Of a DNA stretch of 64,000 nt, positions 10,652-50,483 are shown one piece after another. This DNA comes from a bacterium (GTDB lineage Bacteria; UBA8248), in the NCBI GenBank assembly GCA_965199855.1, contig OZ241326.1:1504001-1568000 (forward strand), written 5' to 3'. Made by a program: the position numbers and the translations under genes. The first letter of the stretch is position 1. Every line of letters starts with the position of its first letter. The notes under the pieces are model-generated. The model was not told the DNA's origin and ran no database searches. It worked only from the letters and a program-made list of their open reading frames with translations.

Positions 10652-11766
10652 TCGGCGAACACCCCCTCGGTGAGGCTCTCCGGGTCGGGCATCGGGCTTT
10701 CGAGCGCCTCGTCCCGCGCCGTCTCCGCGTCCGCCCGCGCCCTGGCGTGGGAGGCGGCGACCTCCCCGGGCGTCATCACGCCGAACTCGATGAGCGTCTC
10801 GTCGAGGCGCTTCACGGGGTCGCGCTCGGCCGTCCATTTCTCGAAATCCGCCATGTCCATGTAGTCTGAGAACTTGTCATAGACCGAATGGCCGACGGCG
10901 CGCATGGTGACGCTCTCGATGAGGGTGGGGCCGCCCCCCGCCCGCGCCCGCGCGAGCGCCTCCCCGCACGCGCGATGGACCAGGGGCGCGTTCGTCCCGT
11001 CGATGAGAAAGCCGGGAATCCCGTAGCCGGGCGCCTTGAGGACGAGGGCGTCGCAGGCGTATTGGTCGCCGGGCGGGGTTTTGTAGGCGTATTGGTTGTT
11101 GTCGATGACGACGACGAGGGGCAGCCTCCGCGCGGCGGCGAAGTTCAGCCCTTCGTGAAAGTCGCCCGCGCTCGTGCCGCCGTCGCCGATGTAGGTGAGC
11201 GTCGCCTGCCCCTGGCCGCGCGCCTTCGCCGCCCACGCCACGCCCGCGGCGATGGCCGTCATCGTCCCGATGTGGCTGATGAGCTGGGTGATGCGCCCGG
11301 GCCGGTAGCCCATGTGAAAGTTGCCGTCCCGCCCGCCGGAGGGGCCCTCCGCGCGTCCGAAGAAGTGCGCCATGATGCTCCGGGGCGGATGCCCCTTGGC
11401 GAGGTGCGCCCCGCAGTTTCTGTGCATGGGCACGAGCCATTCATGATCTTCGAGGCGCATGGCGCTCGCCACGCTCGCCCCCTCGTTTCCCCTGCCGAAG
11501 AAGGCGGTGCCGGGGACGTGGCCCGCGCGGAAGGCGGAGTCCAGCGTCTCCTCCACCGCCCGCGCCAGCGAGACGAGGTAGTGCATCCGCCCGGCGGTCT
11601 CCCGGTCGGGGAGAATCTCCTTTTTGGAAAAGGACACCCAGCGCGCCTCCAGCCCGTCGACGGCGAGGTAGCGGCCCTCCAGATCGCGGAAGAAATCGAG
11701 ATTCGCCAGCTCCTCGCGCGCGGCGAGGGGGTGCTCCCGGGCTTTCGCTTCCATGCGGAACTCCAT
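10648..11766 (-). CDS. 2-oxoacid dehydrogenase E1 alpha subunit (TPP-dependent)
   Basis: TPP motif GDGGTSAGDFHEGLNFA...NNQYA and RAVGHS. Confidence 0.93.
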   Translation of the reverse strand: MEFRMEAKAREHPLAAREELANLDFFRDLEGRYLAVDGLEARWVSFSKKEILPDRETAGRMHYLVSLARAVEETLDSAFRAGHVPGTAFFGRGNEGASVASAMRLEDHEWLVPMHRNCGAHLAKGHPPRSIMAHFFGRAEGPSGGRDGNFHMGYRPGRITQLISHIGTMTAIAAGVAWAAKARGQGQATLTYIGDGGTSAGDFHEGLNFAAARRLPLVVVIDNNQYAYKTPPGDQYACDALVLKAPGYGIPGFLIDGTNAPLVHRACGEALARARAGGGPTLIESVTMRAVGHSVYDKFSDYMDMADFEKWTAERDPVKRLDETLIEFGVMTPGEVAASHARARADAETARDEALESPMPDPESLTEGVFAE

Positions 11767-11887
11767 GGGCCTGTGGAGGGAAGAGCGCGCCGCCCATTAA
11801 AGCACATTTTCACGGGGGAGCAACAGATGCGGCGCGCTCCGGCGTCGTTTTTGGGTGGAGAAGAGGGATTGCCGGAATTCAAGAGGT

Positions 11888-11912
11888 GGGGAACAACCAC
11901 GGGGCGTCCCCT
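11888..11912. repeat. Degenerate REP-like palindrome (GGGACAACCAC family)
   Basis: GGGGAACAACCACGGGGCGTCCCCT; related copies at 19840, 35061 and 35337. Confidence 0.55.
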
Positions 11913-11942
11913 TGAGGCGAAGGCGCCGGCGTCTCCCTCGCG

Positions 11943-13379
11943 TCACATTCGGTAGGGAAGTTCCGGGAGTTTCCCCGCCAGCACGGCGTCCAAGGTGAGG
12001 ATTTGTAGCCTCGGGAAAGGCTTGACGGCGAACAGTTCGGCCTTTTCGGGCGCGTGAAGCCCCGCCCTGTTGGCGAAGTTCGTCATGGGTCTGGTCGGCG
12101 GGCGCCGGGTGATGAAAACCCCCGCCACATGCTTCTTGTCCAGCAATCCCTTCAGCTCCCGCACGTGCTTTACGTCCGGCTTTCCGCTTTTCACCGACAC
12201 GATGGCCTGCTCTCCGGTGCGGAGGAGGATGCGCCCGTCGATGCCGCCGTCCGCGCCCATCTTCTCGTTCGGCAGTCCGCCGATGGTGGCGACGCAGAAC
12301 TTCTCGAACTCCTTGCGGGGATAGAGCGGCGAGGCTTCGTCCAGCAGCTTCGCCTCCACCTCCGCCCGCGTCTTCGGAACCTCCCTGACGTCGATTCGCT
12401 TCCAGATATCAACCCGTTTTCGTCTGAGCCGCTCCTGAATCGCGCCGATGGCGGCATACGTGACGTCGATGCCGATCCATTCCCGCCCGAGGTTCTCCGC
12501 CGCCTCGATGGTGGTGCCGCACCCGCAGAAGGGATCGAGGACGACGTCCCCCCGATTCGAGGACGCCTCGATGACGCGATTCAGCAGGGCGAGGGGTTTC
12601 TGGGTGGGGTAGCCGAGGCGTTCTTTGGCAGTGGAATGTTGCTGAAATGACATAACATCTGACCATACATCTGTCAGTGCGACGCCCTTCGTTTCATCAA
12701 GATACTGGATACGCTTGCCTGGCCGATCATCACGATACTTGCGGCCTTCCGGATCGGTTTTTTTGAAGCGAGCCACGTATTCAAGTTTGTGGGGTAGAAA
12801 TTCCTTTATGAAAGTAAATCTTTCGCCGCGGGTGTAATAGAGAATCGTATCATGGCCCCGGACATAGCCGTTTATCTGGCTCTTATATCCCGAAGAAGTT
12901 TGCAAGTTCCAGATAATTTCTCGTCGGAAATTCTCTCTCCCGAAAATTCCGTCCAGGACGATTTTGAGGTAATGGGAGGCGGTCGGGTCGCAATGGAGAT
13001 ACAGGCTGCCGGTGGGCTTCAGGATGCGATGCAGCTCGACGAGCCGCGCCGCCATGTTGACGAGATAGGCGGACATCTGAACCTTGCCCATCCCGTCCAC
13101 GAGGGCGCGCAGGATTTCGACCTGACCCTGACTTGGCTTGCTTGCTTGCTTGCTTGCTTGCGAAACAAGTTGATTCAGCAACTTATCACAATTCGGCGTC
13201 CACGCCCAGGTGTCCTCGAACGCCGTTATCTGGCCGAGGTCGTCCGGGTAGATGATGTTGTAGGCCCTGTTCGAGTTGAAGGGCGGGTCGAGATAGACCA
13301 GATCGACGGACGCATCCGCCATCTCCCGCAGGATGGGGAGATTGTCTCCGTAATACAGGCGGCGAAGGCGCTGGCTCAT
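11943..13379 (-). CDS. Site-specific DNA N6A/N4C methyltransferase (beta order) fused to a C-terminal Mrr-like endonuclease-fold domain
   Basis: Motif IV YLDPPF precedes GYPTQKP and motif I VLDPFCGCGTT; C-terminus EFEKF...GADGGIDG...SVKSG...GVFIT. Confidence 0.9.
   Translation of the reverse strand: MSQRLRRLYYGDNLPILREMADASVDLVYLDPPFNSNRAYNIIYPDDLGQITAFEDTWAWTPNCDKLLNQLVSQASKQASKPSQGQVEILRALVDGMGKVQMSAYLVNMAARLVELHRILKPTGSLYLHCDPTASHYLKIVLDGIFGRENFRREIIWNLQTSSGYKSQINGYVRGHDTILYYTRGERFTFIKEFLPHKLEYVARFKKTDPEGRKYRDDRPGKRIQYLDETKGVALTDVWSDVMSFQQHSTAKERLGYPTQKPLALLNRVIEASSNRGDVVLDPFCGCGTTIEAAENLGREWIGIDVTYAAIGAIQERLRRKRVDIWKRIDVREVPKTRAEVEAKLLDEASPLYPRKEFEKFCVATIGGLPNEKMGADGGIDGRILLRTGEQAIVSVKSGKPDVKHVRELKGLLDKKHVAGVFITRRPPTRPMTNFANRAGLHAPEKAELFAVKPFPRLQILTLDAVLAGKLPELPYRM
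13136..13161 (-). repeat. Tetranucleotide simple sequence repeat (GCAA)6 inside the MTase 5' coding region
   Basis: The + strand reads GCTT x6 plus GC; it encodes the SQASKQASK stretch. Confidence 0.95.
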
Positions 13380-13523
13380 TTCCCGGCTCCCTGAATTGGC
13401 GCGGCGAGAAGAGTCGTCCGCGCGGCGATATGCGGCCGACCTTCAACCAACGGGTTGAGTATGCGCGACCCCTGCGGAGCGGCGGCGTCCATCCCCGGCG
13501 GAGAAGCCTGCCCTTCTCGTCCG

Positions 13524-13545
13524 CTCCGGGTGGCCGGAATCCAGG
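13524..13545. repeat. REP-like palindrome (CCGGAATCCAG family)
   Basis: CTCCGGGTGGCCGGAATCCAGG resembles the reverse complement of the element at 35124-35151. Confidence 0.45.
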
Positions 13546-13713
13546 ATTCCCCCGCCGTCACAGATTCCCCATTACAGCATATTCGGGCGGAAAGGGAAGC
13601 GCGCCCTTTGAAACGCGCCCTCTTTAGAAGTATAGAGGTTCATGCTCCGGGCGGCCGGGCGCGTCGAGCGCGTCCGCGAGCGTTCGCCCGTATGAAAATG
13701 CGGCGGGGGGAAG

Positions 13714-14628
13714 ATGAGCCTCCTGGTGTTCGGCACGATGGCGATTGATTCGGTGAAGACGCCCTTCGGCGCGCGGGAGGAGGCGGTGGGCGGCTCGGCC
13801 ACCTATTTCTCGGTCGCGGCGAGCTACTTTACCGAGGTGCGGCTCGTGGCGGTGGTGGGGGATGACTTTCCCGACGAGACGCTCGCCTTTCTCGGGGAGC
13901 GCGGGGTGGACGCCTCCGGCCTCGACGTCCGGCCGGGGAAAAAGACGTTTCGCTGGAAGGGGGAATACGGCTTCGACCTGAACACCGCCCACACCCTCGA
14001 CACGCGGCTGAACGTGGTGGCGGACGCGCCGCCCGGGGTGCCGGAGGGCTTCAGGGATTCGGATTTCGTGTTTCTGGCGAACATCGACCCGACGCTTCAG
14101 GCCGAGGCGCTCGCCCAGACGGACGCGCCCCGGCTCTCGGCGTGCGACACGATGGACTTCTGGATCAACGGCAAGCGCGAGGAGCTGCTGAAGACCCTCT
14201 CGATGGTCGATATGGTCGTCGTCAACGACGCGGAGGCGCGCGCCCTCTCCGGCGAGCCGAACATCGCCCGCGCCGCGCGGCGCATACGCGAGATAGGGCC
14301 CGGGACTCTCGTGGTGAAGCGGGGCGAATACGGCGCGCTGCTCTTTCACGGAGAAGAGGACGCCTTCTCGGCGCCGGGGCTTCCGATGGAGGACGCGCGC
14401 GATCCCACGGGGGCGGGCGACAGCTTCGCCGGCGGCTTCATGGGGCATCTCGCCGCGACGGGCGACTTGAGCGGGGAGGGGATGCGCCGCGCGGTCGTCT
14501 TCGGGAGCGTCATGGCCTCCTTCAACGTGGAGGCGTTCAGCTACGACCGCATGAAGACGCTCACGCGGGCGGATATCGAGGCGCGCTACCGGGCGTTCGC
14601 CGAGCTGGCGCGCTTCGAGAGGCTCTGA
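13714..14628 (+). CDS. PfkB family carbohydrate kinase
   Basis: Motifs GGSATY, VNDAEA, VKRGEYGA and DPTGAGDSFAGG. Confidence 0.93.
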   Translation: MSLLVFGTMAIDSVKTPFGAREEAVGGSATYFSVAASYFTEVRLVAVVGDDFPDETLAFLGERGVDASGLDVRPGKKTFRWKGEYGFDLNTAHTLDTRLNVVADAPPGVPEGFRDSDFVFLANIDPTLQAEALAQTDAPRLSACDTMDFWINGKREELLKTLSMVDMVVVNDAEARALSGEPNIARAARRIREIGPGTLVVKRGEYGALLFHGEEDAFSAPGLPMEDARDPTGAGDSFAGGFMGHLAATGDLSGEGMRRAVVFGSVMASFNVEAFSYDRMKTLTRADIEARYRAFAELARFERL

Positions 14629-38339: not shown

Positions 38340-39746
38340 TCATTTCGAGAGATAGACGTGCGCGACGCCCGCTTGATCGACGAAGGCGAGGTCGTCCTTC
38401 GCGTCCGCGTTGAAGTCCGCCGCGAGAAGGTTCGAGCGGGGGGGCGCGGGCAGGGGCCGCGACCAGCGGAGACGCCAGCGGCTCCCGAACAGGGCGAGCG
38501 CCCCCAGCCTCCGCCCGTCCGTCCGCGGCAGGGCGACTTCCACGATGCCGCGCCGCCTCAGCAGGGCGAACCTCCCGACGTTCCGCGCGCCCGCCGCGTG
38601 GGCGGAGAAGCCCGCCGCGCGCGCGCGCTCGCGCAGCCGCCCGCCGCTCGGCCGCAGCGCCACGAGAAAGCCCGCCGGGGGCGGCTCCTCGACGGCGAGA
38701 ACCTTCGGCGCGCCGCCGTCGATTCGGAACGCGCCCAGAAGCCGTGCCCCCGCCCCCGCCTCGCCCCACGCCCTGAGGGCCAGGCGTCCGCCCCCGAGCG
38801 CCAGAACGAGGTGGGCCGCTCCCCCGCCGGGGGCGTTGCGGGTGAGAAGAATCTCCTCCTTCCCGTCTCCGTCCAGGTCTGCGGCGAGAGCGCCCGGGAA
38901 GGCGAAGAAGCCGCCTCCGCCCGCCTCGTATGCGGCGATGCGCGCGAGGGATTTCCCGTCGAAGCGGTAGGCGCGGATTTCGGTGGGCTTGCGGCCGCCG
39001 CCGGGCGCGGAGAGGACGAGGAGCTCCTTCCGCCCGTCTCCGTCCAGGTCGGCCGCCGTCAGGTCGGCGTCGGGCCGCGCCCGCGCCGCTTTCGCCCCGA
39101 CGCGCCGGGTTTCCGCCCATTCGCCCCCCCGCCTCCGGAACAGGAGGAGGGAGCCGTCCGCGCCCGTCATCGCCGCGGCGTCCTCGCCCAGGACGGCCGG
39201 CCTGGACAGCGCGGAGGGGGGGACGCTCGGCCAGACGAACAGCCAGCGCCGCTCGATGGCGTCCACGTTGATGAACATTCCGCTGCGGCCCGCGCCGACG
39301 AAGCTGCCGTCCGGCAGCCGGGCGGGAGGAACCTCGGCGGCGAGATCGGAGGGGGCGGGATGATCCCGCATGCGCGCGCGAAGCGCGCCCTCCTTCCTCT
39401 CGAAGGCGACGGGATGAAAATCGCCGTCCATCGTGAAGGCGAGCAGGGTGAGGTGCCCCGCTCCGGCTTCTTTTCCCGCCGGCGCGGTGAGGAGCCACTT
39501 CGTCCGGCCCGGGGCGCGGACGGAAAGCGCCTGATGGGTGTCGAGAGGGTTTTCCGCGCCGCGGGCGGCGCGTTCGCCCGGGACGAGGAGGAGCAGGCCG
39601 CACGCGAGGGCGATGAGGAGGCGCCGCCCGTTCCCCGGAGCCCGCGCCCGCATCCCGCCCGGCGTCCTTCTACCCCGCGCCCGCGGCGCCGGCGCCCGCC
39701 GACGCCCCCGTGGTGACGGCGCGCTTGCCCGCCGGCGGCTTCTCAT
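38340..39746 (-). CDS. Secreted FG-GAP/VCBS repeat protein (true start probably near 39653)
   Basis: Repeats ADLDGDGRKE, ADLDGDGKEE and ADFNADAKDD; signal-like LLIALACGLLLL. Confidence 0.7.
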   Translation of the reverse strand: MRSRRRASAPSPRGRRRAPAPRARGRRTPGGMRARAPGNGRRLLIALACGLLLLVPGERAARGAENPLDTHQALSVRAPGRTKWLLTAPAGKEAGAGHLTLLAFTMDGDFHPVAFERKEGALRARMRDHPAPSDLAAEVPPARLPDGSFVGAGRSGMFINVDAIERRWLFVWPSVPPSALSRPAVLGEDAAAMTGADGSLLLFRRRGGEWAETRRVGAKAARARPDADLTAADLDGDGRKELLVLSAPGGGRKPTEIRAYRFDGKSLARIAAYEAGGGGFFAFPGALAADLDGDGKEEILLTRNAPGGGAAHLVLALGGGRLALRAWGEAGAGARLLGAFRIDGGAPKVLAVEEPPPAGFLVALRPSGGRLRERARAAGFSAHAAGARNVGRFALLRRRGIVEVALPRTDGRRLGALALFGSRWRLRWSRPLPAPPRSNLLAADFNADAKDDLAFVDQAGVAHVYLSK

Positions 39747-49166: not shown

Positions 49167-50483
49167 ATGAGCGCAGACCCCGCAAATAAACTGAACGTTG
49201 CGAATCGCTCCCTGTTTCATGGCGATAACCTCCCCTTCCTTCGCGCCATCAACAGCAATTCCATTCATCTCATCGCCACCGACCCGCCCTTCAACAAGGG
49301 GCGCGATTTTCACGCCACGCCCGCGAGTCTGGCGTCCGGCGCGTCCTTTCAGGACAGGTGGTCGTGGGAGGATGACGTCCAGCAGGCATGGGTGGATCAG
49401 ATCACGGACGACCACCCGAAGCTCATGGAGGCGATAGAGAGCGCGAGATACGCCCATTCGGACGGCATGGGGGCGTATATGTGCTTCATGGCCGTCAGGC
49501 TTCTGGAGATGAAGCGGATACTCCGGGAAGACGGAAGCGTCTATCTGCATTGCGACCCTACGGCCTCGCATTACTTGAAGGCAACGATGGACGCGATTTT
49601 CGGATACAAGAATTTCAGGAACGAGATTGTTTGGTGCTATACGGGACCCGGGAACACCAAGCGTTGGTTCCCCCGCAAGCACGACACGATCCTTTCCTAT
49701 TCAAAGGGAAAAGGCGCTGTATTCAACGCGGACGCTGTGCGTGTGCCGTATGTGAAACTCGAAACAGGGAAGACATCGGGCATTTTCAAGACGGCTGCAA
49801 CCCTCTCTAAGCGAGGCAAGGTCGTTGAGGATTGGTGGGCAAACTTTTCAACCGTTGGGCGAATCGCCCGCGAACGCACGGGCTACCCCACCCAAAAGCC
49901 TCTCGCCCTCTACGAGCGCATCATCAAGGCTTCATCCAACGAAGGCGATAGCGTCCTTGATCCATTCTGCGGTTGCGCCACGACGCTGGTCGCCGCCGAG
50001 AGGCTCAATCGTCAATGGATCGGCATTGATATCTGGGACAAGGCCCATGAGACGGTCATCAGGAGACTGCAGGACGAGGGACTGGCGGCTCCCGACGGCG
50101 ACACGGGAGGACGCCTTTTCACGGCCGGGCAGATCGCGTATTCAAAGGAGCCTCCCGTCCGAACCGACGAGGGAGAGGAAGCCGTCCCGTTTCTCAGAAC
50201 GAAACTGCGCGTGGACGAACCGAAGGATCGCCGGATGAGCCGGGCGGAAATGCTGGCGTTCCTGCTGGATCAAAACGGCTCCAGATGCCAGGGGTGCGAC
50301 AGGGAATTCGACGACTCGCGCTACCTGGAGCTCGACCACAACACGCCGCGCTCCGACGGCGGACTGAACCATATCAGCAACAGGATTCTCCTGTGCGGCC
50401 CCTGCAACAAGCTCAAAAGCAACCGGTTCACCCTGTCGGGCCTGCGCCGCGAGAACAAGAAACTCGGCTACATGGCCGGGTAG
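49167..50483 (+). CDS. DNA N6A/N4C methyltransferase fused to a C-terminal HNH endonuclease
   Basis: TDPPF, GYPTQKP and LDPFCGC; C-terminal C..C, LELDH..PRS.GG, N..LLC..CN..K. Confidence 0.92.
   Translation: MSADPANKLNVANRSLFHGDNLPFLRAINSNSIHLIATDPPFNKGRDFHATPASLASGASFQDRWSWEDDVQQAWVDQITDDHPKLMEAIESARYAHSDGMGAYMCFMAVRLLEMKRILREDGSVYLHCDPTASHYLKATMDAIFGYKNFRNEIVWCYTGPGNTKRWFPRKHDTILSYSKGKGAVFNADAVRVPYVKLETGKTSGIFKTAATLSKRGKVVEDWWANFSTVGRIARERTGYPTQKPLALYERIIKASSNEGDSVLDPFCGCATTLVAAERLNRQWIGIDIWDKAHETVIRRLQDEGLAAPDGDTGGRLFTAGQIAYSKEPPVRTDEGEEAVPFLRTKLRVDEPKDRRMSRAEMLAFLLDQNGSRCQGCDREFDDSRYLELDHNTPRSDGGLNHISNRILLCGPCNKLKSNRFTLSGLRRENKKLGYMAG

Follow-up and report, generated by a model that had tools for sequence, protein, structure and literature searches.

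The locus described here raises the question of whether a perfect tetranucleotide repeat within the reading frame of a DNA methyltransferase gene is a switch that turns the enzyme on and off, a hazard in a gene that is being lost, or a harmless linker. The gene lies in a stretch of 64,000 nucleotides, hereafter the window, from contig OZ241326.1 of assembly GCA_965199855.1 (positions 1,504,001 to 1,568,000; lineage UBA8248), a genome consisting of one 3.04-Mb contig with 67% GC. It encodes a methyltransferase fused to an Mrr-type nuclease fold, and between the two parts of its methyltransferase active site it contains six uninterrupted GCAA units. We conclude that the gene is a probable phase-variable methyltransferase, and we consider it likely that the tract is a real and selected contingency locus. 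The features on which this argument depends, in window coordinates, are the following.

11943 to 13379, minus strand: gene for a beta-class N6/N4 DNA methyltransferase of 478 amino acids with a C-terminal Mrr-type nuclease fold, in frame (ON)
13278 to 13289, minus strand: catalytic motif IV, DPPF, aa 31-34, 5' of the tract
13136 to 13161, minus strand: perfect (GCAA)6GC tract, the proposed slippage switch, at gene nt 219-244, inside codons 73-81
13074 to 13091, minus strand: internal Met97 and Met102, at which the gene calls of relatives start (Met97 for P0241, Met102 for P0002 and P0003)
13019 to 13021, minus strand: stop TGA of shifted frame 1, 38 codons past the tract in the unaltered gene
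12883 to 12885, minus strand: stop TAA of shifted frame 2, 83 codons past the tract in the unaltered gene
12630 to 12923, minus strand: target-recognition domain, aa 153-250, with low third-position GC
12513 to 12536, minus strand: region of motif I, DPFCGCGT, aa 282-289, which binds S-adenosylmethionine (AdoMet) and is lost in both shifted frames
12054 to 12263, minus strand: Mrr_cat-type PD-(D/E)xK fold, aa 373-442

A sequence-only reading of the window had described six perfect GCAA units at codons 73 to 81, placed between motif IV on one side and the recognition domain and motif I on the other, in a gene that is presently in frame and whose shifted frames both stop before motif I. Each of these points was borne out. 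Tandem Repeats Finder (TRF) reported the plus strand from 13136 to 13161 as GCTT repeated 6.5 times (period 4, 100% matches, 0 indels, score 52), and both stops lie upstream of the recognition domain and motif I, so that a change of one unit truncates the protein ahead of its essential motifs. When alleles of 2 to 11 GCAA units were modelled in silico with a script, a full-length product was obtained solely at 3, 6, and 9 units; all other unit numbers gave a stump of 114 to 170 residues without recognition domain, AdoMet site, or nuclease fold. In the available text of a published survey the length criterion for repeats is at least three units when the unit is at least 3 nt (PMC5909438); the (GCAA)6.5 tract, whose unit length is not divisible by three, is above that length and lies inside a methyltransferase open reading frame.

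The tract is also an outlier in its own genome. Among the 105 tetranucleotide repeats of at least three copies in the 3,043,534 nt, 102 had 3 copies, 2 had 4, and only this one had 6.5; it was the longest tetranucleotide repeat genome-wide, the runner-up having 4.25 copies. Perfect period-4 runs fell off steeply with length (98 runs of 12 nt, 47 of 13, 14 of 14, 6 of 15, 2 of 16, and 2 of 17) and then a single run of 26 nt stood apart; if letters were independent and identically distributed, 2e-6 runs of at least 26 nt would be expected per genome. The tract is therefore far above chance expectation. Within the window, for which the TRF list held 69 rows, the claim that no comparable repeat occurs elsewhere also stood, the sole other repeat of at least five copies whose unit length is not divisible by three being (CG)9.5 at 38616-38634 (88% matches). 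Likewise, the related gene at 49167-50483 (plus strand), a second solitary beta-class methyltransferase, contained no repeat, as had been stated, but it proved to be an HNH fusion (HNH 2.2e-10) and not an Mrr fusion.

The product of the gene was assigned from profile and structure matches. Pfam N6_N4_Mtase covered aa 25-307 (E 1.4e-42) and Mrr_cat (PF04471) covered aa 373-442 (E 3e-5, 24.5 bits, above the gathering cut-off of 21), giving a domain order in which methyltransferase, recognition domain, and nuclease are present in one chain, with cleavage predicted only. The best PADLOC models were Type II methyltransferases (MTase_II 1.9e-62), with Type III models next. An AlphaFold2 model built with 56 homologs had a mean predicted local distance difference test score of 88.4, and its best structural matches in Foldseek were beta-class enzymes, namely EcoP15I Mod (4e-17), M.BceJIV, CcrM, and M.RsrI. 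In the putative nuclease fold, K397 is invariant among the 56 homologs and D381 nearly so. The catalytic motif of Mrr-type nucleases is D...(E/Q)xK, and Ser395 occupies the E/Q position of that motif in the predicted fold; many family members also match PF22722, a model of an "inactive REase", and the C-terminal domain by itself, searched by sequence against the PDB, gave nothing meaningful (best E 0.61). Beta-class methyltransferase-Mrr fusions form a family with more than 8000 relatives at E<=0.001 that share a common domain order and invariant residues; matches to the methyltransferase family numbered 22 in this genome and 28 in a congener.

In the AlphaFold2 model the residues encoded by the tract fall at the end of helix 62-77 and in the loop 78-83, ahead of helix 84-97. 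The stretch from C64 to V100 ranged from 25 to 41 residues across the 56 homologs (median 29.5) and is 37 residues long in this protein, so that the repeat in effect inserts about 8 residues into a loop that is permissive. As the length of this loop is variable across the family, repeat insertions that keep the frame would be tolerated in the helix end and the surface loop.

The closest genomic homolog (loci L002 and L038) occurs in G015, a genome of the same genus; its nucleotide identity to this gene is 79% N-terminally and 74% C-terminally, and its recognition domain cannot be aligned with that of this gene. Exactly at the tract site the G015 homolog carries (GGCAAGCG)5, a repeat with an 8-nt unit, and tblastn matches to it switched at the repeat from frame −1 (aa 1-80) to frame −3 (aa 75-258). 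A search of 5.8 billion proteins gave just two close relatives whose length is comparable, P0002 and P0003 (79% and 78% identity over 79% of the query), with P0241 belonging to the same cluster as P0003. The gene calls of all three (P0002, P0003, and P0241, on three contigs of 665, 112, and 54 kb) start just past the tract, at M102, M102, and M97, respectively. The best short match, P0121 (107 aa, 72% identical overall, among the best 120 of 1080 short matches), matched aa 1-72 in frame 0, after which 25 of 30 residues agreed with shifted frame 2. In a sister clade the same loop contained Gly runs of varying length, both in a full-length protein (P0008) and in truncated, frame-shifted ones (P0127, P0242, and P0128 with P0078), which suggests, from the proteins only, a poly-G tract at the same loop. 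Further sister-clade proteins with the loop pattern were P0130, P0131, P0135, and P0145; for both P0128 and P0078 the longest contig was given as 1605 nt.

Part of the gene was found in 19 public sequencing runs from six studies, mostly sponge metagenomes. Four runs from four studies (X1, X5, X6, and X16) were compared with the window as Logan contigs, not reads; the tract zone 13127-13169 was masked in this comparison, and 239 contig pieces stand outside the listed set. Seven contig ends lay 37 to 39 letters inside the masked zone, on both sides of the tract in X1, X6, and X16 and on one side in X5. In X1, X6, and X16 the two ends at the tract belonged to different contigs, one arriving from each side, and in none of the 4 runs, at depths of up to 45, was a contig that bridged the tract present among the contigs listed. 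Logan contigs are built from words of 31 letters. As the tract of 26 nt is shorter than such a word, a tract fixed at six units should assemble through; contig ends on the repeat thus imply, indirectly, either a longer tract or a mixture of lengths. An assembly artefact in the window was considered and rejected, the four other studies having the flanks yet stopping at the tract.

The recognition domain displayed a different kind of variation. P0002 and P0003 were identical to this protein at 50 of 50 and 49 of 50 positions in aa 103-152, and at 222 and 223 of 228 positions in aa 251-478, respectively; between these segments, in the recognition domain, identity dropped to 28 of 100 and 20 of 100. 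Thus, P0001, P0002, and P0003 have flanks that are 97-100% identical around recognition domains that are 20-28% identical. The metagenome contigs gave the same result at the nucleotide level, for run X5 had the same backbone with 275 other letters replacing 12628-12925, and runs X1 and X16 had the window's own recognition domain. Conserved ends around a variable central recognition domain are the allele structure of phase-variable mod genes, as described in the part of PMC5909438 available, and this gene shows that pattern of conserved 5' and 3' ends with an allelic center. No silent cassettes of alternative recognition domains were found in this genome, where the best match was 39-49% identical, so exchange of recognition domains would take place between strains.

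A second restriction-modification family in the genus yielded a parallel case. When 51 genomes of the phylum were searched for (GCAA)5, only this tract and one in G015 were found. The latter lies in a Type ISP restriction-modification gene of 1630 codons (Type_ISP_C 2e-93, ISP_coupler 4e-40, PADLOC REase_MTase_IIG E 0), in the linker between the methyltransferase and specificity domains, and an ortholog in G019 has a different repeat at the same linker site.

G015:C5:26594-26617 (L129/L132): (GCAA)6 in the Type ISP gene, in frame
L134 2860-2901: 7-nt unit repeated six times in the G019 Type ISP ortholog, at the same linker site, in frame

Of nine Type ISP loci, six were close orthologs covering the site, one stopped short of it, and two were distant paralogs without repeats. 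Among the six close orthologs the repeat was present in two (4-nt unit in G015, 7-nt unit in G019), and the other four had ordinary sequence. Two unrelated restriction-modification families in the genus therefore each have, at one loop, repeats that differ from one another and whose unit lengths are not divisible by three. That unlike repeats have been gained recurrently at these loops in two unrelated families is a clean sign of selection for switchability. A mobile repeat cassette shared by the methyltransferase and Type ISP tracts was also considered; it was rejected by eye, as the flanks differ.

From these results we propose the following mechanism. Slipped-strand mispairing at replication would add or remove 4-nt units. 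At 3, 6, or 9 units the whole protein would be made, with motif IV, recognition domain, AdoMet site, and Mrr-type fold; at other unit numbers translation would end 38 or 83 codons beyond the tract, and this methylation would be lost from the cell. If the fused nuclease fold is active, the matching restriction would be lost as well in the OFF state. We infer that the length of the tract changes at an appreciable rate within the lineage and is kept by selection. The original proposal, that a solitary methyltransferase-Mrr gene lacking res has a frameshift switch prone to slippage, is consistent with the frames, the neighbouring genes, the relatives, the contig ends, and the recognition-domain alleles.

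Several observations weigh against a selected switch. Six units is short, and switching may be slow; a rate of about 1e-6 is reported for three-unit tracts in the available portion of PMC5909438. No two tract lengths were seen on one backbone, in a comparison of contigs only with the zone 13127-13169 masked. A promoter scan of 11700-13750 gave 0 sites, and hence no promoter-like site upstream of the gene. Near aa 251-258, next to a short A run, the frame of the G015 copy changes a second time; this copy may be a pseudogene or contain a sequencing error, and there was no synteny between its locus and the one in the window. The short gene calls of P0002, P0003, and P0241 could result from other lesions or from the choice of the gene caller; no near-identical N-terminal fragment from their contigs was present in the best 120 of 1080 short matches. 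P0121 lacks the GCAA-encoded peptide, and its frameshift may have another cause. Repeats at the site were rare, being found at 1 of 19 loci of relatives, at 1 of the 27 from genome contigs, and at none of the 80 from metagenomes, where the single locus of the first two counts is the same G015 locus. The 27 genome-contig loci were 38-71% identical to the gene, only L038 (G015) bearing a repeat at the site; the 80 metagenome-contig loci reached at best 59% identity, and the contigs of P0002, P0003, P0241, and P0121 were not among them. A search of viral contigs gave 1 locus, with 42% identity. Finally, none of the 13 other family members in this genome had a repeat of at least three copies with a unit of at least 4 nt.

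If the tract is a switch, what it switches can be read in two ways. We lean, with some reserve, to bet-hedging of a restriction-modification function residing in one protein, with phage defence and DNA uptake as what is at stake, in view of the conserved nuclease fold and of the parallel case, which is a true restriction enzyme; given a switch, regulatory switching of the methylome, that is, a strict phasevarion, is the less favoured of the two. The nuclease fold and the (GCAA)6 of the congener's Type ISP gene would point to restriction-modification switching at least as much as to a phasevarion. Taken as an explanation in its own right, the strict phasevarion holds that the nuclease fold is inactive and that the gene encodes an orphan methyltransferase whose ON and OFF states alter a set of genes through promoter methylation. 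The gene does stand alone amid housekeeping genes with no res or other partner, its alleles with conserved ends and variable recognition domains resemble those of the phasevarion mod genes in the available text of PMC5909438, and the many repeat arrays before surface-protein genes in this genome (see below) suit a lifestyle in which phasevarions are known. The Ser at the Q/E position and the many family members matching PF22722 are in keeping with an inactive nuclease; the invariant K397 and nearly invariant D381, however, suggest selection on the nuclease fold, and the parallel repeat-bearing gene of the genus is a true Type ISP restriction enzyme. We regard this alternative as unlikely, although it survives better than the others.

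A broader proposal is slightly more doubtful still. It supposes that the lineage possesses a "phasome" in which permissive loops of single-chain restriction-modification enzymes have repeatedly acquired slip-prone repeats whose unit lengths are not divisible by three, and in which a true phasevarion diversifies methylome and surface within the host, the first such case in a non-pathogenic marine symbiont. The repeats it would unite are the 4-nt, 8-nt, and probably poly-G tracts of the methyltransferase-Mrr loop, the 4-nt and 7-nt tracts of the Type ISP loop, and octamer arrays in the leaders of about 11 autotransporter-like genes.

That the repeat is a decay hot spot, a mutational hazard in a dispensable gene acquired horizontally, with the broken relatives being pseudogenes and not reversible OFF states, appears improbable to us. 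The G015 copy has two frame changes, P0121 is frame-shifted and has lost the repeat peptide, and a homolog from Binatia (L040) is frame-shifted near aa 94-99 without any repeat. The low GC content of the gene (52-63% as opposed to about 70% in the flanks) and the absence of synteny between congeners also speak for a dispensable, acquired gene. Old pseudogenes, however, would not be expected to have flanks 97-100% identical over more than 275 residues, as the broken relatives do; the repeats are perfect and uninterrupted; and two lineages have unlike repeat units, none a multiple of three, at the same loop, a pattern also seen in an unrelated restriction-modification gene, which argues for recurrent gain and not for loss alone. 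Slightly less probable still is a neutral low-complexity linker, expanded by chance in a tolerant loop and stable at six units with no role in switching, which would accord with the range of loop lengths (25-41 residues over 56 homologs), the intact frame here, and the absence of directly observed length variation, but not with a genome-wide outlier expected 2e-6 times, with contigs that end on the tract in 4 of 4 metagenomes, with relatives broken exactly at the tract site, or with the persistence of a perfect 26-nt repeat, which would not be retained under neutral drift.

A selected switch, the reading that we prefer, has likenesses to several known systems. The gene resembles Type III mod genes in having a beta-class fold of the N6-adenine type with EcoP15I Mod as its top Foldseek match, in its 5' intragenic repeat, whose unit length is not divisible by three, and in a swapped central recognition domain flanked by 5' and 3' ends with more than 90% conservation. 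It differs from them in having no res, a fused C-terminal nuclease fold, and best profiles among Type II methyltransferases. The hosts differ too, an uncultured, high-GC, sponge-associated organism here as opposed to small-genome pathogens, and switching here is a candidate derived from sequence. Membership in a Type III restriction-modification system was rejected, there being no adjacent res gene and the best PADLOC models being Type II methyltransferases. A survey of REBASE found repeats in 17.4% of the mod genes belonging to Type III, some of them from environmental species, according to the part of the text available (PMC5909438).

The Type IIG enzymes of H. pylori, JHP1272 and HP1353-1354, likewise combine nuclease and methyltransferase in one polypeptide, and in them an intragenic repeat switches the whole enzyme on or off, as far as the accessible sections of PMC3936762 describe them. 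In those enzymes the nuclease is N-terminal, the methyltransferase is gamma-class, and the tracts are homopolymers, whereas this gene has a beta-class methyltransferase, a C-terminal Mrr-type fold (a predicted nuclease), and a tetranucleotide repeat. Type I hsdM and hsdS genes with repeats, for which PMC7383803 was available in part, provide repeat-driven variation of methylation outside Type III, but as multi-subunit enzymes in contrast to the single gene here. Within the methyltransferase-Mrr family itself, a loop repeat occurred only in this gene and in the G015 homolog among the DNA loci examined. Repeat-driven switching is thus a known bacterial device, and what looks new here is the enzyme family and the little-studied kind of organism. 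Our literature searches returned no paper joining sponge symbionts, phase variation, and methyltransferases, and none joining simple sequence repeats, phase variation, symbionts, and metagenome-assembled genomes. No title among the matches listed concerned a phase-variable Mrr fusion, and the supplementary gene lists of the REBASE surveys may hold related entries.

The gene has lower GC than its flanks, and third-position GC dips further across the recognition domain. Downstream on the same strand are the genes for the alpha and beta subunits of an E1 dehydrogenase, and upstream, divergently oriented, are those for a PfkB kinase and an RsmD-like methyltransferase; among the genes around 11943-13379 there was no res gene or other restriction partner. 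Two homopolymer runs were observed near other members of the family. One, a G9 run at G000:C1:2819169-2819177 in this genome, lies about 100 nt upstream of the family member at 2818008-2819072 (minus strand). The other, a C10 run at L023 2962-2971, precedes by 30 nt the start of a homolog with 53% identity from a metagenome-assembled genome labelled Deltaproteobacteria, and may be a homopolymer of the promoter or leader.

Repeats of other kinds were found elsewhere in the genome. There are eleven octanucleotide arrays of 12 to 37 copies, nine composed of CCGACTCA, one of CCGCCTCA, and one of AACTTCCC. One of them is at L142 551-843 (G000:C1:2194250-2194542) and the others are at G000:C1 positions 310217, 1067132, 1185893, 1782368, 1986533, 2441703, 2697195, 2882654, 2945317, and 2475376. 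The arrays lie directly past a −10-like box (CATACT or TATAGT) and ahead of a ribosome-binding site and start codon, and for several of them a small upstream ATG with its own ribosome-binding site reads into the array. The genes that follow are long, 866 to 1665 codons, and the one that was checked has an autotransporter beta-domain (2.7e-16). Among the other genomes of the 51 in the phylum, the octamer CCGACTCA was found only in G001. Such leader arrays fit an organism that relies on contingency loci. Two long heptanucleotide arrays, (GTCTGCG)58 and (CGCAGAC)34, are at G000:C1:1186579-1186985 and 2141818-2142055 (L146 and L147); both are intergenic and are flanked by a GTAG-headed palindrome resembling repetitive extragenic palindromic elements at one end and by a TATGAT-like box at the opposite end. 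Runs of 11 to 12 G or C at G000:C1 positions 955972, 1972309, and 478466 have common flanking sequence and so belong to a small dispersed repeat family with a homopolymer core.

Phase-variable methyltransferases have been studied almost entirely in host-adapted pathogens, and a well-supported candidate in a sponge-associated bacterium would extend stochastic switching of methylome or restriction to beneficial marine symbioses. The methyltransferase-Mrr family is very large and is not described as phase-variable in the literature searched. Recurrent gain of repeats at shared loops could be used as a rule when looking for contingency loci in metagenome-assembled genomes.

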